NCBI GenBank assembly: GCA_034667685.1
Contig: JAXDQU010000115.1
Location: 1-12,813, forward strand
Source of the DNA: Thermoplasmata archaeon
GTDB lineage: Archaea > Thermoplasmatota > SW-10-69-26 > JACQPN01 > JAJPHT01
Reading direction: 5' to 3'
Length of the DNA: 12,813 nt
Part shown: in pieces, positions 1,704 through 11,562 of the stretch
Position numbering within the stretch: position 1 is the stretch's first letter
Layout: each line of letters starts with the position of its first letter
The notes under the pieces: model-generated
Seen by the model: only the letters and a program-made list of their open reading frames with translations
The model's database searches: none
Told to the model about the DNA's origin: nothing
Position numbers and translations under genes: made by a program

Positions 1704-2594
1704 TCAGTACAGCTCGGCCATGAGCGCCTTGCGCTGGTCCGCGGTGATCCCGAGCTTGCGCTTGGCGGGATTGCCCACGGCGTAGGCGCGCTCGCCCTCT
1801 TCGTACGTGGGCTTCTGCGTCTCGTAGAAGACGCCCACGGGCACCTTGTCCTCCGGGCCCAGCGTGGGCCACTCGACGGCGCGCGCGACGGCCGCGCTGA
1901 AGTCCTCCTTGTCGTGCCCCTTCTCCTGGAGGTTGTAGACGCGCTCGCGGAACCAGTCGTACGTGTTGAGCTTGTTGTACGTCACGCACGGGCTCTGCAC
2001 GTCGATGAACGAGAAGCCCTTGTGCTCCACGCCCTTCTGGATCAGCTCGGCGAGGCCCTTCGCGTCGCCCGAGAAGCCGCGCGCCACGAACGACGCGCCC
2101 GCCATGAGCGCGAGGCCGACGGGGTTGATGGGCTGCTCGATGTTGCCGAACGGCGTGCTCTTCGTCTTGTGGCCGATCAGCGACGTGGGCGAGGTCTGGC
2201 CCGTGGTGAGGCCGTAGATCTCGTTGTTCATGACCACGTACGTGATGTCCATGTTGCGCCGCATCGCGTGCAGGAAGTGGCCCGAGCCGATGCCGTAGCC
2301 ATCGCCGTCGCCGCCGGTGGCGATGACGGTGAGGTCGGGGTTGGCGAGCTTGATGCCTTGGGCGACGGGGAGCGCGCGGCCGTGCAGCGAGTGGATGCCG
2401 TACGCCTTCAGGAAGTGGGGCAGGTTGCTGCTGCACCCGATGCCGGAGACGACCGCGACCTCGTGCGGCTGCTTGCCGGCGCCCACGAGCGCGCGCGTGA
2501 CGCCCGTGAGGACGGCGTAGTCGCCGCAGCCGGGGCACCACGTGGGCTTCGTGTTGACCTTGTAGTCCGCCAGTTGCACCGTGATCGCCGCCAT
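1704..2594 (-). CDS. korB: 2-oxoacid:ferredoxin oxidoreductase subunit beta (TPP-binding)
   Basis: WCPGCG, SGIGCSS, LHGRA, GGDGDG...NNEIYGLTTGQTSPTS and SPCVTYN motifs. Start overlaps the alpha-subunit stop (TAATG). Substrate specificity cannot be determined from sequence. Confidence 0.96.
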   Translation of the reverse strand: MAAITVQLADYKVNTKPTWCPGCGDYAVLTGVTRALVGAGKQPHEVAVVSGIGCSSNLPHFLKAYGIHSLHGRALPVAQGIKLANPDLTVIATGGDGDGYGIGSGHFLHAMRRNMDITYVVMNNEIYGLTTGQTSPTSLIGHKTKSTPFGNIEQPINPVGLALMAGASFVARGFSGDAKGLAELIQKGVEHKGFSFIDVQSPCVTYNKLNTYDWFRERVYNLQEKGHDKEDFSAAVARAVEWPTLGPEDKVPVGVFYETQKPTYEEGERAYAVGNPAKRKLGITADQRKALMAELY

Positions 2595-4363
2595 TAGTGC
2601 ATCACCGCCTGCTTGCCGCCGGACTTGAGGACGGCCTGCACCTTGGCGACGATGTCGTCGGGCCAGAAGGGCTCGCCGTCGTATTTGCGGAGCGTGTCCG
2701 TCGGGAACCAGCCGATCTCCGCGCGGATGAGCCGCTCGAGCTGGCCGGTCTGGTTGCCTTCGATCATGAGCGTGAACTTCTCCTTCGCGAGCATCGCCTT
2801 GAGCTTCTCGTGGTCGAGCGGGTAGAGGTCGGTGAACTCGATCGACGCGACCTCGACGCCCTGCTGCTTGAGCGTCGCCATCGCCTCGCGCACCGCGCCG
2901 TGCGTGGAGCCCCAGGAGACGAGCGTGACCGGCGCGTTGGCGGGCCCGACGCGCTCCGGCATCCGGAGGTCATGGCGCGCGCCGTCGAGCTTCTTCCAGC
3001 GCTTGTCCATCTGGCGCTTGCGCATCTCGACGGCGTCGGGCAGGCCCGCGCGCACGTCCGAGATCAGCGTGCCGTCCTCGTCGTGCTCGTCGGAGCCGGC
3101 GATGTACGCGGCGTCCTTCGTGCCGGGCACGATGCGGGGGCTCACGCCGTCGTCGGTGAGCTTGTAGCGCATCGGCGCGCCCTGGCCGTCCCACATCTTG
3201 CCGCGGTCGAGGCGCGCGGACTCCATCGGGAACTCCTCGCTCGTCTCGAAGTGCTCCGAGAGGAGGAGGTCGCTGAGCACGAGCACGGGCGTCTGCCACT
3301 TCTCCGCGAGGTTGTGCGCGCGGAGCGTCGCCTCGTACGCCTCGGGCACGGTGCGCGGCGCGAGCACGATGCGCGGGTAGTCGCCCTGGCCCGCGCCCAT
3401 GACCATGTTGAGGTCGCCCTGCTCCGTCTTCGTCGGAAGGCCCGTCGAGGGACCGCTGCGCTGCGAGACCATGACCACGAGCGGCGTCTCGGTGATGCCG
3501 GCCATGCCCATCGCCTCGACCATCAGCGCGAAGCCGCCACCCGAGGTGCTGCACATGCTGCGCGCGCCCGCGTAGGCCGCGCCGATGGCCATGTTGATGA
3601 CGGCGATCTCGTCCTCGCACTGCTTGACCACGATGCCCAGCTCGGGGCCGTGGTCCGCGAGGAACTGGCCCACGCTGGTCGCGGGCGTCATCGGATAGAA
3701 GGAATAGAAGTGGCACCCGGCCGCCATGGCGCCCAGCGCGATGGCCTGGTTGCCGGTGAGGAAGATGCGCTTGCGGTCCGCGTAGGGAAGCGCGAAGTCC
3801 ATCGCGCCCCACTTCTCGGTCGCGTAGTTGATGCCCGCCTGCGCGGCCTTCAGGTTCGCCTCGACGACGTCGGCCTTCTTGTGGCCGAACTGGTCCTCGA
3901 GCACGCTCTTGAACTTGTCCACCGGCGCCTTGATGAACGCCATCGCCGCGCCCACCGCCACCGTGTTGGCCATGATCGGGTTCGGGCTGAACTCCTTCGC
4001 CAGCTCGTAGAGCGGCATCGGACAGAGCGTGACGCCCTTGGGCACGTCGGCCTCCGTGATCTTGACCTTCGTGGGATCGAAGATGACGCGCGCGCCCGCC
4101 GAGAGCGTGTCCTTGTGGACGTCCACGGTCTGCTTGTTGAGCGCGATCAGGATGTCCGCCCGCTGGCCCACGTAGAGCACGGGATCCTTGCCGCCGCGGA
4201 TCTGGAACCACACGTGGCCGCCGCGGATGACGGACTGGTAGGAGTTGTAGGCGTAGACGTGCTGCGCGCTGCGCGAGAGCGTCTTGCCGAAGATCTCGCC
4301 GGTGGACGCGACGCCGTCGCCGGCCGCGCCCCCGATGCGGATGCTCACTTCGGTGCGAGACAT
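2594..4363 (-). CDS. korA: 2-oxoacid:ferredoxin oxidoreductase subunit alpha (gamma-alpha fusion type)
   Basis: IGGAAGDG, YQSVIRGGH, LTGNQAIALGA, YPMTPAT, EDEIA, TSGGGFALM, QRSGPSTGLPTKTEQGD motifs; 589 aa. Confidence 0.96.
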   Translation of the reverse strand: MSRTEVSIRIGGAAGDGVASTGEIFGKTLSRSAQHVYAYNSYQSVIRGGHVWFQIRGGKDPVLYVGQRADILIALNKQTVDVHKDTLSAGARVIFDPTKVKITEADVPKGVTLCPMPLYELAKEFSPNPIMANTVAVGAAMAFIKAPVDKFKSVLEDQFGHKKADVVEANLKAAQAGINYATEKWGAMDFALPYADRKRIFLTGNQAIALGAMAAGCHFYSFYPMTPATSVGQFLADHGPELGIVVKQCEDEIAVINMAIGAAYAGARSMCSTSGGGFALMVEAMGMAGITETPLVVMVSQRSGPSTGLPTKTEQGDLNMVMGAGQGDYPRIVLAPRTVPEAYEATLRAHNLAEKWQTPVLVLSDLLLSEHFETSEEFPMESARLDRGKMWDGQGAPMRYKLTDDGVSPRIVPGTKDAAYIAGSDEHDEDGTLISDVRAGLPDAVEMRKRQMDKRWKKLDGARHDLRMPERVGPANAPVTLVSWGSTHGAVREAMATLKQQGVEVASIEFTDLYPLDHEKLKAMLAKEKFTLMIEGNQTGQLERLIRAEIGWFPTDTLRKYDGEPFWPDDIVAKVQAVLKSGGKQAVMH

Positions 4364-4430: not shown

Positions 4431-4620
4431 GGAGGGCAAGGTCAAGGGCAGGGGCAAGGGCAAGTTCTCATCCCCACGTCGTTTGCCGGCGCTCCTTTTC
4501 CAAACACCGAGAATCCCGGAATCCGCGGATGCCTCGGATGCGCGGCGTCAGGAAAGGAGCGCCACCAAGACAGCCATCGGATAGGAACTTGCCTTGCCAC
4601 TGCCCTTGACCTTGCCCTCC
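4431..4620. repeat. ~190-bp imperfect palindromic element (MITE-like or structured RNA) with terminal inverted repeats built from GGGCAA-like hexamers
   Basis: 4431-4451 is the exact reverse complement of 4600-4620 (21 bp). Pairing continues to about 4473/4579 with a few mismatches and a bulge. Inner stem 4488-4501 pairs with 4551-4563. Confidence 0.88.
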
Positions 4621-4678
4621 CAACCGCATCGACGGCGCAGCCAGAACCGCGAATCGCCCCGCGGCAGAGGGCTTCCCC

Positions 4679-5020
4679 ATGCCCGAAGAGACGACCGGCG
4701 GGCCGCTCACGACCGACGCGCGGACGCCGACGCGCCAGGACGACGCGCCCCGCGGACCGCCCGAGCGCTCCCCCTACGAGATCGCTCCCCGCGACGACCT
4801 CCTGGGCACGCGCGCGATCCACGTCATGCTGCGCGACCTTCCCTTCCCGCTCACGGCGCGGGACGTCCTGGAGCGCGCGGGCGCCTGGCGCGTTCCCGTC
4901 ACCGGCGCGCACTTCCACCCGCTCGCGCAATACCTCGAAGGCATCCCCGACCGGCGCTACCGGAACGTGGACGCGCTCGTGAAGGCCATCGAGAAGGCGC
5001 ACCGGGACCTCGCGCCTTAG
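4679..5020 (+). CDS. DUF2795-like small protein, 113 aa
   Basis: LRDLPFPLTARDVLERAG...LEGIPDRRYRNVDALVKAI resembles the FP-x-T...LPDR-x-Y pattern of DUF2795-type domains; high GC3. Confidence 0.65.
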   Translation: MPEETTGGPLTTDARTPTRQDDAPRGPPERSPYEIAPRDDLLGTRAIHVMLRDLPFPLTARDVLERAGAWRVPVTGAHFHPLAQYLEGIPDRRYRNVDALVKAIEKAHRDLAP

Positions 5021-5074
5021 GAGCATCTGCGCGCGCAGATGACCTCAGGGGCATGTGCGTGCGCAGGTGTCCCT
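5019..5074. repeat. Two tandem ~27-bp palindromic repeats between convergent genes (REP-like or possible terminator)
   Basis: AGGAGCATCTGCGCGCGCAGATGACCT (5019-5045) and AGGGGCATGTGCGTGCGCAGGTGTCCCT (5047-5074) match at 21 of 27 positions. Copy 1 contains a perfect 18-bp palindrome (5024-5041). Confidence 0.75.
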
Positions 5075-5420
5075 AGCCCGCCGCCGTGGACGACCCGCCG
5101 CGGCGCGCCGCGTTGACCCGCGCGTCGGCCAGGGCGCGCTTGGCGGCTTGGATGGCGACGAGGGCGGCTTCGACGGAGGCGTCGGCGCGGGCGAGGACGG
5201 CGTCGAGGTCGGGGGAGCCGGCGGCGGCCATGTCGTCGATGGCGAAGGAGGCGAGGGCGGAGTCGAGGGACGCCTTGGAGGCGGCGATGGTGGACTCCGC
5301 GCTGTGGTAGGGTTCGAGGGCTCGCGTGAGGTTGGCCGCCTCGGAGGCGAGGGAGGTCGCGCAGTGCGACAGCTCGCGGGCGGCCCGGATCGCATGGCGC
5401 GTGCGCTCCTGACCCGTCAC
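5073..5420 (-). CDS. Hypothetical Ala-rich alpha-helical protein, 115 aa
   Basis: GTG start with BRE/TATA-like CCAAAGGTTCAAT about 25-37 bp upstream; high GC3; amphipathic helical pattern. Confidence 0.6.
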   Translation of the reverse strand: MTGQERTRHAIRAARELSHCATSLASEAANLTRALEPYHSAESTIAASKASLDSALASFAIDDMAAAGSPDLDAVLARADASVEAALVAIQAAKRALADARVNAARRGGSSTAAG

Positions 5421-5458
5421 GTCGGCTGCACCTGTTTGGGGACGATTGAACCTTTGGT

Positions 5459-5653
5459 CTACTTCTTTTTGTGCAGCCGGCGTCGCGCCTCTTCGAGCTC
5501 GCGTTCGGCGTCCTCGAGCGCGCGCCGGGCTTCGTCGAGGTCGATGGTGCCGCCGCGCATGGCGGCGCGGAGGCGGTCGAGGGCTTGTTCGAGACGTCGG
5601 GCGGCCTGGCCGACGGCCTCGTCGTCCTCCGGCTCCTGGTCGTCACGGCCCAC
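5459..5653 (-). CDS. Hypothetical coiled-coil helical-hairpin protein, 64 aa
   Basis: GTG start preceded by GGAGGGAG (RBS-like); heptad pattern; high GC3. Confidence 0.65.
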   Translation of the reverse strand: MGRDDQEPEDDEAVGQAARRLEQALDRLRAAMRGGTIDLDEARRALEDAERELEEARRRLHKKK

Positions 5654-5775
5654 TCGCTCCCTCCATCGTCATGCCGGCGCCGTGCTATCATGGGGCCCTC
5701 CTCATCAAAACATATGGGGGCGGGCAGGCCGACACGTCCGGCTTCGGCGCGGCCGATCGACGCCGCCGCCCAAGC

Positions 5776-5970
5776 CTACGAGCGCGTTTGACGGTTCCGG
5801 AGCCGCGCGGCTTCGAGGGCTTGCTGGGCCTCGCGGAGGCGCGCCTGGGCCCTTTCGAACTGGCCGTCGAGGGCGTCGGGGTTGGCGGCGAGGGCTTCGA
5901 CGAGCTCGCGGCAGGCTTCCTCGAACGCCTCCAGCGTCTTGCGAAGCTCACGGTCCCCTTCGCCGTGCAT
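5776..5970 (-). CDS. Hypothetical coiled-coil helical-hairpin protein, 64 aa
   Basis: ATG 5970: MHGEGDRELRKTLEAFEEACRELVEALAANPDALDGQFERAQARLREAQQALEAARLRNRQTRS. This is the protein-like tail of the supplied 352-aa ORF, whose upstream part overlaps another gene. Confidence 0.62.
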   Translation of the reverse strand: MHGEGDRELRKTLEAFEEACRELVEALAANPDALDGQFERAQARLREAQQALEAARLRNRQTRS

Positions 5971-6023
5971 CCGCCCGTGCTGCGGCAGTCCTTCGGGAAA
6001 TAGGTGCGCCGGACGGCGGCAGG

Positions 6024-6767
6024 CTAGCCGGCGAGGTAGGCGACGAGGCTGCGCAGCGACGCCTCGGCCGCGTGTCCGTTCGGCCCGTCGAGGGCTGGGA
6101 CGGGCACGACGCGGACGCGGAATGGCGGCCGCTGCGCGACTTCGGCGAGGGGGTGGCGAAGGAGCGGCGTGGCGGGGGGCCAGCGCGCGAGCCAGGCGTC
6201 CTCGGGGGCGCGGGCGAGGTCGACGAGGTCGCGTTGTCCCAGCGCGTGGCCGAGGGCCGCGAGCGCTTCGGCGCCCACCGTGACGACGGCTTGGGGCCGC
6301 AGGAGGCTCAGCAGGCGCGTGAGGTGGGTGGCGGCGGCGTCGCGGACGGCGGGCATCGGGGCGAGGTCGAAGGGGTTGGCGTGCGCGAGATGCGCGACGC
6401 TGAAGAGCGCGGCCGGGGGCGCGGCGGCCGCGGCGTCCCACCAGCGCGCGGAGGGGCTCGACGTCTCCCCTTCGATCTGAAGGCCGAGGCGTTCGCGCGC
6501 TTCGCGGGGGCCGGTGAAGGGGATGCCCGTCGCCCGCGAGCCGGCGTCGGGGGAGCCTGCGAGGACGAGGGCGCCGGCGCGGGCGAGGCCGCGGGCGTAG
6601 AGCTGGAGGAAGTCGTGCACGAGGGGCCACTGGTCCGCGACGCTCGCGCCGATGCGCACGCCCTGGCGTCCCAGCTTCTCGGCGAGGCGCGCTTCGACGC
6701 CGACGAGGTCGCGGTAGGCGACGAGCACGTCCTCGACGACGCCCGTCTGCGCGATGACCGCGTCCAT
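6024..6767 (-). CDS. Uracil-DNA glycosylase superfamily (SMUG1/SMUG2, DUF4918-like) protein with degenerate catalytic motifs, 247 aa
   Basis: FLQLYA...LVLAGSPDAGSRATGIPFT and RPQAVVTVG align by eye to the F..Y...ILGxNPG..G..TGIPFT and P..VI.LG segments of the family. TATA-like AGAAGCGTTATC about 30 bp upstream. Confidence 0.6.
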   Translation of the reverse strand: MDAVIAQTGVVEDVLVAYRDLVGVEARLAEKLGRQGVRIGASVADQWPLVHDFLQLYARGLARAGALVLAGSPDAGSRATGIPFTGPREARERLGLQIEGETSSPSARWWDAAAAAPPAALFSVAHLAHANPFDLAPMPAVRDAAATHLTRLLSLLRPQAVVTVGAEALAALGHALGQRDLVDLARAPEDAWLARWPPATPLLRHPLAEVAQRPPFRVRVVPVPALDGPNGHAAEASLRSLVAYLAG

Positions 6768-6848
6768 GGCCGAGCAGCGCCAGCGCGAGGTGCGACGATA
6801 ACGCTTCTGATTCGAACGCGCGTCGTCGCACCATATGCTCTCGTCATG

Positions 6849-7016
6849 TCACCGCGGGGGGCGCTCGCGCGTCTTCCTCCGGGCGACGACCTCCTTGAAC
6901 TCGGCCATGCGGCCGCAGCGCGGGCAGAAGGCGTTGAGATGTGCATCCAGGGTGGGATCGGTTCCTTCCCAGCCGCACGTCTCACAAACGAACTCGAATG
7001 GCAACGGGCCCCCCAT
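6849..7016 (-). CDS. C(P)xCG-type zinc-finger microprotein, 55 aa (not in the supplied ORF track)
   Basis: MGGPLPFEFVCETCGWEGTDPTLDAHLNAFCPRCGRMAEFKEVVARRKTRERPPR, with two CxxCG knuckles. Alternative TTG start at 7004. Confidence 0.75.
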   Translation of the reverse strand: MGGPLPFEFVCETCGWEGTDPTLDAHLNAFCPRCGRMAEFKEVVARRKTRERPPR

Positions 7017-7100
7017 CCACGTCTTGGGACTTGGGGCTTGCTTCGGAGGGCGAGGCGAGGGAGCCCCGGCAAACGACCTTCCTCGCCCCCGTGAGGGAAG

Positions 7101-9218
7101 CTAGAACTCCCAGCTCTTCTTCCGGTTCAGGTGGCGCGTCAGCAAGCGCGCCGTCTCTTCCTGCACGACATCCAGACCTGACTCCACAGCAAACCCTTCG
7201 CGCAGCGCGGCGTTGACGTGCTTGCCGAGGTCGTACTCCAGGAGCTTGTCGCGGATCAGCTCGTCGGCGCGGCGGTAGTCGCGCGCGCGTTCGACCTTGA
7301 GGCGCCCCTCCTCCTCGTACACGGGGGAGCGCGCGTCGCGGTGCCCCGTCCACGCCTTGCGGAAGCGCTCCGCGTGCTCGCGGCTGCGCACGGGCGGGCC
7401 GGCGTGCGTGACGGTGTCGGGAAGGCGCAGGCGCGGAAGCTCCAGGAGGATGCGAAGCTCGCGGTCGCCCACCTCGTACGTCGCGCGCTTGAGGTCGAAC
7501 TCGTGGCGCTCGAGCAGCTTGCGGATCGACTCGACGCTCTTGCGCATCTGGTCGTGCAGGTGGTCGGCGAGCACGTCGGGCGCCTTGGTCCGGACCAGGA
7601 GGAAGTCGCTGCGCCGGCGCCGCACGGCCAGCTCCAATTCGTCGGGCGCGCGCGGCACGAGCTGGCGCGGGAAGAAGAACTGCAAGCCCTCGCGCCGCAG
7701 GTATGCGCGGCAGCTTTCGGCGAAGTGCGCGAGCGTGTCCGCGCTCACCGCGCTCGCGGCGTTGCGCTTCGTGTCCACCGGATCGAGGAAGGTGAGCGGG
7801 TCGCCGAAGCGCGGCGTGCCTTCGAGGCGGTCCAGCACGAGGAACGTGCCCGGCTTCCAGCCCTGCGCCGCGCGCAGCACGCCGCGGAACGAGCCGTACT
7901 TGAGGACCAGCAGCTCGCAGAGGTAGCCGCTGAAGCCGCGCGTCTGCGCCTCGGCGCCGTAGACGCCCACGCCCTTCATGAACGCCTTGAGGAGGCGCGC
8001 CTGGTCGCGCTGCTCGCGGCTCATCCGTGATAGCACGAGGCGCGTGTGGAACGGCGTGCGGTCCACGGCCGTCATGCGCTGGCTCACGTCGGAGATCTCG
8101 TAGGCGGGCACGACGTCCGCGCGCACGCCCTCGAAGAGCCCGTGGATGTAGGGGTGCTCGGCGTACTTCTCCTCGGGGTCGTCGAGCACGTCGCGGCCCA
8201 ATTCGAGGCCCCACTGCTCCAGCTTCTCGCGCGGCACGTCGGGCGCGAAGAGGACGAAGCAGTCGAGGTCCACCGCCTGCTTGAGGTACGTGTCCTTGGC
8301 GACGCTGCCCACGAGCATGGGCTTCCCCGCGATGCCGCGCGCCGCGAGCGCTTCGTGCAGCCGCGCCAGCAGACGCTCCGCGCGCTCCACGGTGCGCTGC
8401 GCCTCTTCCGGAGTCGGCTTCACGCGCTGGAGGGCGAGGCGCTCGGTGCTGATGAAGCGCCCCGTGAAGATCGCGACGACGCCCGCCACCACGAGGCCGC
8501 CCAGCACGTCCACGATCCAGTGGATGTTGAGGTAGAGCGTCGCCGCCACGAGAAGGATGGCGTAGCTGTAGGCGAAGATCCGGAAGCCGCGGTTGCGCGA
8601 GTAGCGCGCGGCGTTGGCCGTGAGCGCGGCGAAGGCGACCTGGAGCGAGGGGAACGTGTTGTTCGTGGTGGTGAACGAGTAGTAGAGGTCGGCGAGCTGC
8701 GGGAAGAGGCCGAACACCGGGCTCTGCACGTGGTGGAAGAGGTAGACGTTCGTGATCGGCACTAGGAGATAGAACGGGAGCGCGAGCAGGTACGCCAGCG
8801 GGAACATCAGCAGGTACGCCTTCGCGGGGCGCTCCTCGTCGCTGAGCAGGTAGAGCAGGATCGGGAAGTAGAGCATCCACGGCTGCACCGCGATGTAGAC
8901 GATGCTGAAGAGCCAGTCGAGCGGCGAGCCCCAGAGGTGCTGGAGGCTGGGCACCGCGCCGCGTTCGAGCGCGTCGACCTGCGGCGCGAGGTCGTGGTAG
9001 GGCAGGCGCGGCGTGACGGCCTGGTCCACCTGCACGAGCAGGAGGTGCAGGAGCAGCACCGCGATGGCCGCGAGCAGGAACTTGCCGTACTTGTCGAGAA
9101 GGCGCTGCGCGTCCTTGCGGCCGGGCCACGTGGGCGTCTCCGGCAGGAAGAGGATCAGCCCGGCCCCGACCAGCAGGAGGTTGACGAGCAGCACCACGAG
9201 CCAGAGCGGGAGGTCCAC
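7101..9218 (-). CDS. cca: Fusion of an N-terminal PAP2/AUR1-like multi-pass membrane domain (~aa 1-255) and an archaeal class I CCA-adding enzyme (~aa 259-705)
   Basis: CCA motifs: RVKPTPEE, LVGSVAKDTYL...DLDCF, YAEHPY, DVVPAY, AVDRTPFHT, GVYGAE..TRGFSGYLCELL, DPVDTKRNAASA, HAGPP. Membrane domain motifs: FYLLVP, NTFPSLQ, LYLNIHWIVDVLGG. No stop codon between the domains. Confidence 0.93.
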   Translation of the reverse strand: MDLPLWLVVLLVNLLLVGAGLILFLPETPTWPGRKDAQRLLDKYGKFLLAAIAVLLLHLLLVQVDQAVTPRLPYHDLAPQVDALERGAVPSLQHLWGSPLDWLFSIVYIAVQPWMLYFPILLYLLSDEERPAKAYLLMFPLAYLLALPFYLLVPITNVYLFHHVQSPVFGLFPQLADLYYSFTTTNNTFPSLQVAFAALTANAARYSRNRGFRIFAYSYAILLVAATLYLNIHWIVDVLGGLVVAGVVAIFTGRFISTERLALQRVKPTPEEAQRTVERAERLLARLHEALAARGIAGKPMLVGSVAKDTYLKQAVDLDCFVLFAPDVPREKLEQWGLELGRDVLDDPEEKYAEHPYIHGLFEGVRADVVPAYEISDVSQRMTAVDRTPFHTRLVLSRMSREQRDQARLLKAFMKGVGVYGAEAQTRGFSGYLCELLVLKYGSFRGVLRAAQGWKPGTFLVLDRLEGTPRFGDPLTFLDPVDTKRNAASAVSADTLAHFAESCRAYLRREGLQFFFPRQLVPRAPDELELAVRRRRSDFLLVRTKAPDVLADHLHDQMRKSVESIRKLLERHEFDLKRATYEVGDRELRILLELPRLRLPDTVTHAGPPVRSREHAERFRKAWTGHRDARSPVYEEEGRLKVERARDYRRADELIRDKLLEYDLGKHVNAALREGFAVESGLDVVQEETARLLTRHLNRKKSWEF

Positions 9219-9221
9219 GGC

Positions 9222-9767
9222 TCAGGCCTCCAGGGGCGACTCGTGGAGCACGTCGTGCAGCGCGCCGCCGCGGGCCAGCGTGCTGCGGTAGAGGCGGACG
9301 GCATGGACGCGCGCGGGCGGGTGCTCGAACGCGGCGTGCTCCGCGAGCCACTGGGGCAGCGCGCCGACGCGCCCGCGCTCCTGCACGCGCGCCAGGGTCA
9401 CGTGCGCGGCGAAGGGCTTCGCGTCGTCGGGCGGCAGGCGCTCGCGCACGCGGGCCGCCAGCGTCTCCAGCGGCGGGCACGGCATCGACCCGAGCCAGAT
9501 GACGCGCGGCGCGCGGGGATTCGGGAACGCGCCCACGCCGTGCAGCGGGAGGTCGAACGGCGCGATGCCGCGCGCGGCCTCGTCGAGCAATGCCCCCATG
9601 CGCGCGGCCTGGTCTTCGGCGACGTCGCCCAGGAACGACAGCGTGAGATGATGTTGGCTCTCGGGTGCCATCTTGAGGTCGGCGCCCGTCCGCGCGAGGC
9701 TGGCCAGGAGCGCCTCAGACTCCGGCGCCCGCGGCAGGGGGACGGCCACGAAGGCCCGGAACGCCAT
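9222..9767 (-). CDS. thpR: RNA 2',3'-cyclic phosphodiesterase (2'-5' RNA ligase, 2H family), 181 aa
   Basis: RAFVAV start, two HxT motifs (HLTLSFLG, HVTLAR), GVGAFPNPRAPRVIWLG, LYRSTL. ATG at 9767; stop is 3 bp from the cca-fusion start. Confidence 0.93.
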   Translation of the reverse strand: MAFRAFVAVPLPRAPESEALLASLARTGADLKMAPESQHHLTLSFLGDVAEDQAARMGALLDEAARGIAPFDLPLHGVGAFPNPRAPRVIWLGSMPCPPLETLAARVRERLPPDDAKPFAAHVTLARVQERGRVGALPQWLAEHAAFEHPPARVHAVRLYRSTLARGGALHDVLHESPLEA

Positions 9768-9789
9768 CGGAGGGGCAGCCGGGGCCACG

Positions 9790-9802
9790 CGAATAAGACT
9801 GG
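9790..9802 (-). promoter_or_regulatory. Putative TATA box for a leaderless thpR-cca transcript
   Basis: Minus strand CCAGTCTTATTCG, an AT-rich patch centred about 27 bp upstream of the thpR ATG. Confidence 0.5.
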
Positions 9803-9882
9803 CGCCGCCGCGGACGCCGCGCGAGCTTTGCAAGATCGATCCTGCCAACCGAGATGTCCCCGACGTCGGTAGCGTCCCTCGC

Positions 9883-10653
9883 ATGACGCGAAGCATCCTG
9901 CTCCTGACGCCATTCCTTCTGCTGCCCCTGGCGCTGCCGCTCACCGTGGCCGGCGGCTCGTGCGAGGCGTTGGCGCTCCCGGACCTCCCGACCTTGGCCG
10001 GCGGGGCCTCCGGCTGCGCGCTCGCCGCGTCCTCCCCCGGCGGTGAGGGTGGGCCGCAGACCGACGGAAGCGCCGACGTGGCCGCGTGCGCCGTGACCCG
10101 CGCGCCCACCGACGACGTGCGCCACGTGTGCGTCGACGGAAGCGCCTCGGTGGTCCTGGCCGGCAGCCGCCTCGAGCACGCCGAGAAGGTGAACTGGAAC
10201 TACGCGGACGGCTTCAGCTCCTCGGGCGGCAACCCCTGCCCGGGCTGCGTCACGCCGCCCATCTCCATCCACCTCCAGAGCTTCCTCGGCCCCGCGCTCG
10301 TGGACGTGTACAACGCCGGTGCGTACTCGTGCGCGACGACGTACCCGCCCGCCACCACGTATGACGTCCTCGTCACCTGCACGGCGCAGCACGCGCCGCC
10401 CACGGGCCACTGGGAGTGCGTGAACACGAACATGGCCGCCCATCCGGAGACGGACGTGACGACGGTCACCGGCACGCTGGGCTGCGGCAGCACCGCGATC
10501 AGCGCGACGGGGCACGGCTACCGCAACCCGTGGCCGGACGCGAACGGCGTCGTCGGGAAGGCCGACCAGGGCAGCGCCGACGTCATCACGTGCGCCGCCC
10601 ACGACGACTTCCGCAACAGCCTGAGCGACTGGGAAGTCTGGTGCACGTACTGA
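9883..10653 (+). CDS. Hypothetical secreted Cys-rich protein, 256 aa
   Basis: N-terminal signal-peptide-like MTRSILLLTPFLLLPLALPLTVAG; 12 Cys; rich in T/G/A/S; high GC3. Confidence 0.75.
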   Translation: MTRSILLLTPFLLLPLALPLTVAGGSCEALALPDLPTLAGGASGCALAASSPGGEGGPQTDGSADVAACAVTRAPTDDVRHVCVDGSASVVLAGSRLEHAEKVNWNYADGFSSSGGNPCPGCVTPPISIHLQSFLGPALVDVYNAGAYSCATTYPPATTYDVLVTCTAQHAPPTGHWECVNTNMAAHPETDVTTVTGTLGCGSTAISATGHGYRNPWPDANGVVGKADQGSADVITCAAHDDFRNSLSDWEVWCTY

Positions 10654-10689
10654 GCGCACCTTCTTGACCCGGCCGTCCCTGCGCAGCGC

Positions 10690-11562
10690 ATGCGCCTCGC
10701 CGGCCCGGTCGACCTCGTCGCCACGCTGCGCGGGGGCCAGGCGTTCCGCTGGGAGCAGGACGCGGAGGGCGCGTTCGTCTCGACGGTGGGCGCGCGCGCC
10801 GTGCGCTACCAGCCGGGGCGCGGGCTCGCGGTCCACGCGGAGGCCTGGCCGCGCGCGTCGAGGGCCTGGCACGAACGATATCTCGGCGCGACGGCGGAGG
10901 ACGACGCGGCGCTGGCGCGGCTGGCGCGCGACCCCGTCCTCGCGCCGGCCATCGCCGCGCATCCGGGGCTGCGCATCCTGCGCCAGGAGCCCTGGGAGAC
11001 GACGGTCGCGTTCCTCGTGAGCGCGAACAACCACGTCCTCCGGATCGAGGGCATCCTGCGCCGGCTCGCGGCGAAGGGCCCGGAGGTCGGCTCGCCCTGG
11101 GGCGCCCTGCATGCGTTCCCCGACGCCGCGACCCTGGCGCGCGTGCCGGAGCGCCAGCTTCGCGCGATGGGGCTGGGCTACCGCGCGCCGTTCCTGCGCG
11201 CCACCGCGCGGGCCGTCGCGGCGGGCGAGGTGGACCTCGATCCGCTCGTGGGCGCGCCCTTTCCCGAGATCCGCGAGGCGCTGCTCGCGCTCCCCGGCGT
11301 GGGGCCCAAGGTCGCCGGCTGCATCGCTCTCTTCGCGCTCGACGCCCGCGGCGCGTTCCCCGTCGACCGCTGGGTGCTGCGCGCGGTGTCCGATTCGTTC
11401 TTCGAGGGCGAGCCGGTCAAGCCGCGCGAGGCCGAGGCGTTCGCCCGCGCCCGCTGGGGCGAGGACGCGGGCCTCGCGCAGCAGCTCCTCTTCCACGCGC
11501 AGCGCGTAAGCGCCAAGAGGAGGGGCCCGGATGCGGCCGCGTGGACCCCCTCCTCGCGGTGA
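10690..11562 (+). CDS. ogg: 8-oxoguanine DNA glycosylase, OGG1 type (HhH-GPD)
   Basis: TLRGGQAFRW, GLRILRQEPWET, SANNH, GLGYRA, HhH motif LPGVGPKVA with catalytic Lys, FPVD with catalytic Asp, AGLAQQLLF. Confidence 0.9.
   Translation: MRLAGPVDLVATLRGGQAFRWEQDAEGAFVSTVGARAVRYQPGRGLAVHAEAWPRASRAWHERYLGATAEDDAALARLARDPVLAPAIAAHPGLRILRQEPWETTVAFLVSANNHVLRIEGILRRLAAKGPEVGSPWGALHAFPDAATLARVPERQLRAMGLGYRAPFLRATARAVAAGEVDLDPLVGAPFPEIREALLALPGVGPKVAGCIALFALDARGAFPVDRWVLRAVSDSFFEGEPVKPREAEAFARARWGEDAGLAQQLLFHAQRVSAKRRGPDAAAWTPSSR

Follow-up and report, generated by a model that had tools for sequence, protein, structure and literature searches.

The DNA analysed here (the window) is a stretch of 12,813 nucleotides (nt) from a Thermoplasmata archaeon (contig JAXDQU010000115.1). 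It contains a gene, pap2-cca, in which a membrane domain of the PAP2 family and a class I CCA-adding enzyme are encoded as one polypeptide. The reading we prefer, and hold to be probable though well short of certain, is that this fusion has been selected and that the PAP2 domain serves as a largely non-catalytic membrane anchor of the only CCA-adding enzyme of its genome.

The fused gene is a single open reading frame (ORF) of 705 amino acids (aa) plus stop codon, without internal stop. Its start codon is GTG in the window, and ATG stands at the aligned position in loci L004, L007 and L011. In the N-terminal part, Pfam matched PAP2_3 (PF14378) at residues 100-249 with 40.4 bits (cut-off 27) and PAP2 (PF01569) at residues 186-257 with 30.8 bits (cut-off 27.2). 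NTP_transf_2 (residues 301-391), tRNA_NucTransf2 (405-516) and CAA_C (539-681) were likewise found above their cut-offs. The NCBIfam equivalog TIGR03671 (cca_archaeal) matched residues 262-665 with its model positions 5-408 of 410 at 412 bits (cut-off 281.3); since the match begins with model position 5 at residue 262, the CCA enzyme starts a few residues past the last hydrophobic helix. The protein sequence across the junction is ...GRFISTERLALQRVKPTPEE..., and the DNA encoding it contains neither a stop codon nor an ATG. The codon of V266, close to the junction, is an in-frame GTG (8423..8421). About 2-6 residues form the linker between the last transmembrane (TM) helix (residues 235-255) and the first helix of the CCA head domain (258-266). 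A sequence-only reading of the window had described an uninterrupted 705-aa ORF without ATG at the junction, which translation and junction DNA bear out, and about 255 aa of hydrophobic PAP2 sequence, for which Pfam and the structural model give residues 1-258. The window has a G+C content (GC) of about 70%, and long spurious frames are abundant as a consequence. One of them, an overlapping frame of 832 aa on the minus strand (6982..9480), is rich in Arg, Pro and Ala and was dismissed as a high-GC artefact.

An error of assembly or sequencing, or two genes read as one, might be suspected in a genome which was assembled from metagenomic data into 124 contigs, has 70% GC and commonly shows spurious long frames. 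This explanation was tested and is rejected. An independent contig from run X2, which derives from another sample and another study than run X1, the possible source, spans positions 7000-9333 with 0 differing letters and 0 gaps, and no insertion or deletion within 7101-9218 was found in any of the four public runs compared. Furthermore, the fusion is retained at identities as low as 36-43% in many assemblies. The pap2-cca fusion is confirmed as genuine and is not due to an assembly error. The sequence-only reading had called for read support at the junction, where the X2 contig proved identical, and for the fusion in independent genomes, which was found in the 75 protein clusters and 13 other genomes described below.

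Full-length matches free of stop codons were obtained for 4/4 genomes of the genus (68-84% identity), for 4/4 other genera of the family (49-57% identity) and for 5/6 further genomes of the order, the five including G013, where the match is broken by a contig end. With the window's own genome counted, 14 of the order's 15 genomes carry the fusion. In a large protein collection, both halves occur together in 75 clusters of 640-721 aa, which stem from NCBI, JGI, ENA and Logan assemblies. Unfused relatives of the CCA part in the same collection have 423-475 aa, which is consistent with the 430-460 aa named earlier for characterised CCA enzymes. A cluster of the same PAP2-CCA architecture with 68 members was found in the ESM Atlas. 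The fused records that carry a name are called only 'CCA tRNA nucleotidyltransferase' and belong to Thermoplasmatota or Thermoplasmata archaea. As database names cover only the CCA half, the architecture is invisible in annotation.

Residues 259-705 were compared with known structures using Foldseek and matched the CCA-adding enzyme of Archaeoglobus fulgidus (3ovb_A) with an expect value (E) of 1.3e-32, a TM score by target of 0.90 and 32% identity. G304, S305, D317 and D319, which form the G-S ... D-x-D signature, are invariant in 75/75 fused proteins, as are the stretches DRTPFH and GFSGY. From the signature of the nucleotidyltransferase family, we take G304-S305 and D317-x-D319 to be the catalytic residues. 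Nothing in the sequence suggests a loss of function in the CCA domain, and CCA addition is predicted. TIGR03671 matches the genome (3.48 Mb, 99% complete) once, at the fused gene, and the class II family PolyA_pol does not match it at all; a second cca gene, about which the sequence-only reading had asked, is thus not present in it. An encoded 3' CCA follows none of the 48 tRNA genes predicted by ARAGORN. Seven of the 48 end in CCA within the gene, with lengths of 72-75 nt (87 nt for Ser). Because these lengths are ordinary, the terminal CCA most likely represents acceptor stem and discriminator base. The fused enzyme is therefore needed by at least 41 of the 48 tRNAs and probably by all of them.

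For the membrane domain, a whole-protein AlphaFold2 (AF2) model was built with 75 homologues. It reached a predicted local distance difference test (pLDDT) value of 92.1 and a predicted TM score (pTM) of 0.82 at full length; residues 1-258 modelled alone gave 93.5 and 0.90, respectively. TM helices are predicted at residues 5-24, about 46-66, 98-125, 129-152, 192-204, 210-229 and 235-255. With the whole 705-aa model, the top 50 matches of Foldseek were nucleotidyltransferases only, for which reason the N-terminal domain was modelled separately. Residues 1-258 matched best to inositol phosphorylceramide (IPC) synthase 9vj4_A (E 5.5e-4, TM score by query (TMq) 0.55), besides Aur1/IPC synthase 9ivc_A (E 1.1e-3, TMq 0.57). 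LpxE (6ebu) and PgpB of Bacillus subtilis (5jki) came next, and all four matches had a probability of 1.00 and TMq values of 0.39-0.57. Sequence-profile matches in the PDB were significant only for 5jki (PgpB/YodM) and 6ebu (LpxE), both with E of about 6e-4. The label PAP2/AUR1-like, given from the sequence alone, agrees with the IPC synthases at the top of the Foldseek list.

Topology was deduced from the positive-inside rule. The median number of Lys and Arg residues over the 75 fused proteins is 6, 2, 4 and 4 in the loops predicted to be inside and 0, 2, 0 and 0 in those predicted to be outside. This alternation places the N-terminus outside and, after seven helices, the C-terminus inside. 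Accordingly predicted by these counts, as had been expected earlier, the CCA domain would be cytoplasmic, and the PAP2 motifs C2 and C3 would lie in outside loops. A position of the motifs on the outer face is the usual orientation of solved PAP2 enzymes. From there, the PAP2 site could hardly act directly on tRNA.

The state of the PAP2 motifs was examined by residue counts in the 75 fused proteins, which were divided into a near group (n = 60, identity of the CCA part to the query ≥ 45%) and a distant group (n = 15, < 45%). The family motif here is PSLH ... HWxxD. In the C2-like motif of the window's protein, Gln193 replaces the catalytic His; column 193 has His in 52/75 and Gln in 11/75 fused proteins, the window's protein being among the latter. 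The C3-like motif is kept in the window's protein, and over all fused proteins H233 is retained in 56/75 and D237 in 52/75. All three catalytic residues are intact in 34/75. The distant group keeps H193, H233 and D237 in 15/15, the near group in 19/60. At least one of the three has been lost in 41/60 proteins of the near group: only the C2 His in 15/60, including the window's Q193, and the C3 His or Asp in 26/60. Free-standing paralogues have both motifs in 20/20 cases. The corresponding residues H, H and D are intact in 8/8 aligned proteins of family f18, where pap2 and cca are split, and in 4/4 fusions of families f29 and f50. A C1 motif (KxxxxxxRP) was searched by regular expression and found in 0/75 fused proteins; this motif is usually absent from the Aur1/SMS branch. 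The residues S207, R208 and N209, in the TM5-TM6 loop predicted to be cytoplasmic, are present in 60/75, 61/75 and 70/75, even where catalytic residues are gone.

Despite these losses, the PAP2 domain is kept at full length, with its structural prolines, N187 and P190 conserved. The ratio of non-synonymous to synonymous substitutions (dN/dS), estimated by the NG86 method, which is crude in a 70% GC genome, was 0.289 for the PAP2 part and 0.292 for the CCA part of the closest pair in the genus. Seven other pairs of the genus gave 0.36-0.61 and 0.29-0.66, respectively. Both parts are under purifying selection. Full-length retention and a dN/dS like that of the CCA part, taken together with the loss of motifs, indicate that the PAP2 domain is selected, apparently not for catalysis in most members of the order. 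The only other PAP2 match of the genome is a 412-aa protein with VTT (DedA) and PAP2 domains (locus L034, 1456..2694, minus strand, contig C39), in which the C3 His and Asp seem to be missing by eye. If so, the genome may hold no PAP2 protein with the full catalytic set.

Upstream of the fused gene lies thpR, whose TGA ends 3 nt before the GTG start (9218). To place this arrangement, 401 genomes of the phylum were surveyed and 50 loci examined. The gene thpR directly adjoins cca in family f6 (5/5 loci) and in f5, f7, f10, f14, f21 and f38, and with a gap in f26. The order thpR-pap2-cca is found in 25 of the 26 loci with pap2; the 26th (L025 in G026, f12) has pap2-cca and no match to thpR. The relatives' loci therefore match the earlier statement that thpR and cca are neighbours in archaea and that the membrane domain sits between them here. 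In f18, pap2 and cca are separate genes: at least 17 genomes match residues 5-704 as a whole with exactly one stop codon in between, and since this stop may be TAA, TAG or TGA, no recoding is involved. Five in-frame loci of f18 have one internal stop each, and the junctions read abut the ATG of cca (TAA ATG; TGA AAA ATG), for instance ...AAG GAG GAG TAA ATG.... The two genes overlap in three other loci of this family (G032; G174, 23 nt; G222, 14 nt). When the split PAP2 and CCA proteins of f18 were modelled as a complex, the prediction (score 0.00, mark 0.32) carried no weight either way.

Besides the window's order (f1-f4), four genomes of f29 and one of f50 have the fused state. A tree of the CCA part, built from 50 rows, joins the window's order to f6, a PAP2-free family of the same class. 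The split f18 appears there as sister of the f29 fusions, and the f50 fusion stands with f38 and f7, both PAP2-free. Fused rows thus occur in three places, and over the starred branches the fused state changes at least three times. Forcing the 17 fused rows into one clade was rejected by the approximately unbiased (AU) test (difference in log likelihood 150, p-AU 0.00068). The group tested was chosen post hoc, with the tree in view, though it is defined by an independent trait. In a tree of the PAP2 part (46 rows), the cca-linked domains are set apart from most free paralogues (support 86), the fused domains of the order form one clade (97), and f29 is nested within f18 (100). These trees suggest an old thpR-pap2-cca cassette from which many lineages lost pap2, and in which fusion took place independently at least twice and probably three times. 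In f11 and f28, PAP2 also matched within open frames of about 700 aa; these were considered as further fusions and excluded from the count, their C-terminal region being non-CCA. These proteins (L037, 178..2268, minus strand, in G036 of f11; L035, L036, L038 and L039) have PAP2_3 with intact PSLH and HWxxD motifs, followed by a region of about 440 aa with a final hydrophobic helix. Searched with the whole protein, their best E is about 1e-12, all of it on the PAP2 part, and no strong CCA match was obtained.

From these observations, the following course may be proposed. In an older thpR-pap2-cca operon, pap2 and cca would have stood in frame and been translationally coupled, and loss of the stop codon between them would have given the fused protein. 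The CCA domain would then follow the last membrane helix on its cytoplasmic side, almost without linker, and CCA synthesis and repair would take place on all tRNAs at the inner face of the membrane, beside the co-transcribed ThpR. The PAP2 domain, with its motifs turned outward and degraded, would act as anchor or scaffold and not as lipid phosphatase or transferase. Degradation of the motifs both here and in most near relatives makes a non-catalytic anchor its most likely role. The sequence-only reading had suggested that tRNA 3'-end maturation is tethered to the membrane or coupled to lipid-phosphate metabolism or sensing. Tethering is favoured by the evidence; coupling to lipid-phosphate catalysis has become doubtful because of Q193, the loss of catalytic residues in 41/60 near relatives and the position of the motifs on the opposite face of the membrane.

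Several observations weigh against an anchor selected for the CCA enzyme. Within the order, G012 is the sole genome without the fusion: thpR is directly followed by an unfused cca and PAP2 is absent, so that at least one lineage does without the anchor. (At this locus, L027, about 30 nt separate the end of thpR from cca, the open frame of which extends to 655 aa owing to the high GC.) Many other families keep thpR-cca without pap2. N187, P190 and the stretch TT.NN.FP are conserved on the outer face, which could mean that the domain binds a ligand beyond mere anchoring. H233 and D237 are present in the window's protein, and Gln193 might permit residual chemistry. One fusion followed by fissions would be a less parsimonious alternative to the recurrent fusions. 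The coarseness of the NG86 estimates and the post hoc naming of the group in the AU test have to be reckoned here as well. One RNA-library run yielded only short contigs, from a relative that is about 94% alike; none of them spans the junction, and the parts left uncovered are uninformative.

Among the rival explanations, a bifunctional protein deserves the most attention, although we judge it unlikely. According to it, the PAP2 domain is an active phosphatase or phosphotransferase for lipids of the outer leaflet, the CCA enzyme works independently, and the fusion is a neutral by-product of abutting genes. Stop loss is easy between abutting in-frame genes, G012 does without the domain, and N187 and P190 on the outer face are conserved; H233 and D237 are intact here, and the full set is found in the 34/75 proteins that include all 15 of the distant group. 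However, Q193 stands in place of a C2 His which all 20 free paralogues hold, 26 near relatives without the C3 His or Asp still retain the whole domain, and the sole other PAP2 protein of the genome, the one with VTT, seemingly lacks the C3 His and Asp, too. A link between pap2 and cca across several families, with fusion recurring at least two times, also exceeds what neutral chance would lead one to expect. A wider proposal, which we put forward as speculative and consider rather doubtful, is that a PAP2-like protein is a dedicated partner of tRNA 3'-end synthesis across a large branch of the Thermoplasmatota; it would keep the CCA-adding enzyme, together with the end repair that depends on ThpR, at the membrane, in a complex where the genes are split and covalently where they are fused. 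Its conserved outward pocket might then sense the envelope or lipid phosphates and tie the supply of tRNA 3' ends to their state.

Anchoring would not apply if a soluble CCA enzyme were made from the internal GTG at V266 or released by proteolysis, with tRNA maturation remaining cytosolic. Such a start would leave the head domain complete except for its first short helix, and GTG stands at this codon in the window as well as in 7 of the 12 loci L003-L014. The other five of the 12 have CTG, ATC or GTC, the distant fused group has Ile or Thr, and no Met or start codon is conserved at the junction; moreover, the preceding ERLALQR is conserved as protein and aligns to the CCA model from position 5 onward. 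We therefore deem this explanation improbable. Less credible still, PAP2 might be an RNA 2'-phosphatase that removes the phosphate left by ThpR, so that the CCA domain could extend the repaired end; thpR-pap2-cca would then be a three-step repair line, analogous to the HD phosphoesterase domain of bacterial class II CCA enzymes. A phosphatase-family domain does stand between phosphodiesterase and CCA enzyme in 25/25 three-gene loci, and according to PMC4201822 ThpR turns 2',3'-cyclic phosphate RNA ends into 2'-phosphate ends. Yet the C2 and C3 motifs are extracytoplasmic by the positive-inside rule, opposite the CCA domain, the catalytic residues have been lost in 41/60 near relatives, and many relatives have thpR-cca without any PAP2; the probability of this proposal is very small. 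A largely non-catalytic anchor of the CCA enzyme remains the reading we favour.

The features of the window are listed in the table. Directly downstream of the fused gene, about 2.6 kb (4442-7094) gave no family match in the long frames tested. One of these, a 679-aa frame convergent on the fused gene, is rich in Arg, Gly and Ala and was judged spurious. Between thpR and the glycosylase gene (9768-10690), no family match was found in the frames tested.

Table. Features of the window, with position, strand and basis or remark.
Feature	Position	Strand	Basis or remark
pap2-cca fused gene	7101..9218	-	705 aa; GTG start at 9218; stop codon 7103..7101
PAP2_3 membrane domain, residues 1-258, 7 predicted TM helices	8445..9218	-	Pfam, AF2, positive-inside counts, Foldseek
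Class I CCA-adding enzyme, complete (head, neck, body, tail), residues 259-705	7104..8444	-	Pfam, TIGR03671, Foldseek
Junction, residues 256-266 (ISTERLALQRV)	8421..8453	-	sequence and AF2 model
C2-like motif P190-S-L-Q193, Gln for catalytic His	8640..8651	-	alignment
S207-R208-N209, predicted cytoplasmic TM5-TM6 loop	8592..8600	-	alignment; placement from positive-inside counts
C3-like motif H233-W-I-V-D237, kept in the window's protein	8508..8522	-	alignment
thpR, LigT-type 2H phosphoesterase, 181 aa	9222..9767	-	HLT and HVT motifs
8-oxoguanine DNA glycosylase (OGG_N and HhH-GPD)	10690-11562	+	upstream of thpR, opposite strand
2-oxoacid:ferredoxin oxidoreductase, POR/POR_N alpha-gamma	2594..4363	-	family match
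2-oxoacid:ferredoxin oxidoreductase, thiamine pyrophosphate (TPP)-binding beta subunit	1704..2594	-	one-base overlap with the alpha-gamma gene at 2594
Frame without family match	4442..5026	-	
Frame without family match	5017..5691	-	
Frame without family match	5055..7094	+	679 aa, judged spurious
Frame without family match	5776..6834	-	
Frame without family match	6308..7072	-	

To our knowledge, CCA-adding enzymes have been described only as soluble housekeeping enzymes. Here, across a whole order of uncultured soil archaea, a tRNA-maturing enzyme that is apparently essential and present in a single copy forms part of a membrane protein, and the fusion recurs in other families. If the predicted localisation is true, every tRNA would have to visit the membrane to become chargeable, which would be an unexpected spatial organisation of archaeal translation, and the PAP2 domain would clearly exemplify the reuse of an enzyme domain as non-catalytic anchor. 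The thpR-pap2-cca cassette is a testable candidate for a membrane-associated module of tRNA end repair. Both domains are of known kinds; what we rate as new is that they are combined, that a sole CCA enzyme has a predicted place at the membrane, that the three genes form a conserved cassette and that the fusion recurs. In the full-text literature searched, a PAP2-CCA fusion is not mentioned ('PAP2' there denotes poly(A) polymerase 2), in keeping with the unfamiliarity of the architecture stated in the sequence-only reading. The main text of a survey of archaeal fusions (PMC11237513) names no PAP2-CCA fusion either, while its supplementary tables might list one.

Known systems resemble the protein in parts. 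The class I enzyme of A. fulgidus (3ovb, 1r89, 1uet) matches residues 259-705 over its full length with 32-33% identity and the same three Pfam domains. Compared to this type and to the unfused enzymes, which are soluble, the window's protein has 258 additional N-terminal residues forming seven membrane helices. Aur1/IPC synthase, LpxE and PgpB share the positions of the PS.H and H...D motifs with the PAP2 domain. They differ in that the domain here has Gln for the C2 His, no C1 KxxxxxxRP and an extra N-terminal helix, and none of them is fused to an RNA enzyme. The relation to Aur1-type IPC synthase is one of fold only, at 17-18% sequence identity, and the window's protein is not classed as a member. 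Closest in organisation is the split thpR/pap2/cca operon of f18, with the same gene order and 32-36% (PAP2) and 33-38% (CCA) identity to the window's protein; it encodes two proteins with a stop codon between them, and the catalytic H, H and D are preserved. In bacterial class II CCA enzymes, the same polypeptide has an HD phosphohydrolase domain, a soluble one that works on the end of the RNA. The likeness lies in CCA addition and a phosphoesterase-family domain in one chain and in a link to the repair of 2',3'-cyclic phosphates. In contrast to them, the window's protein belongs to the other class of nucleotidyltransferase, and its PAP2 domain is embedded in the membrane, with the motifs predicted on the far side.

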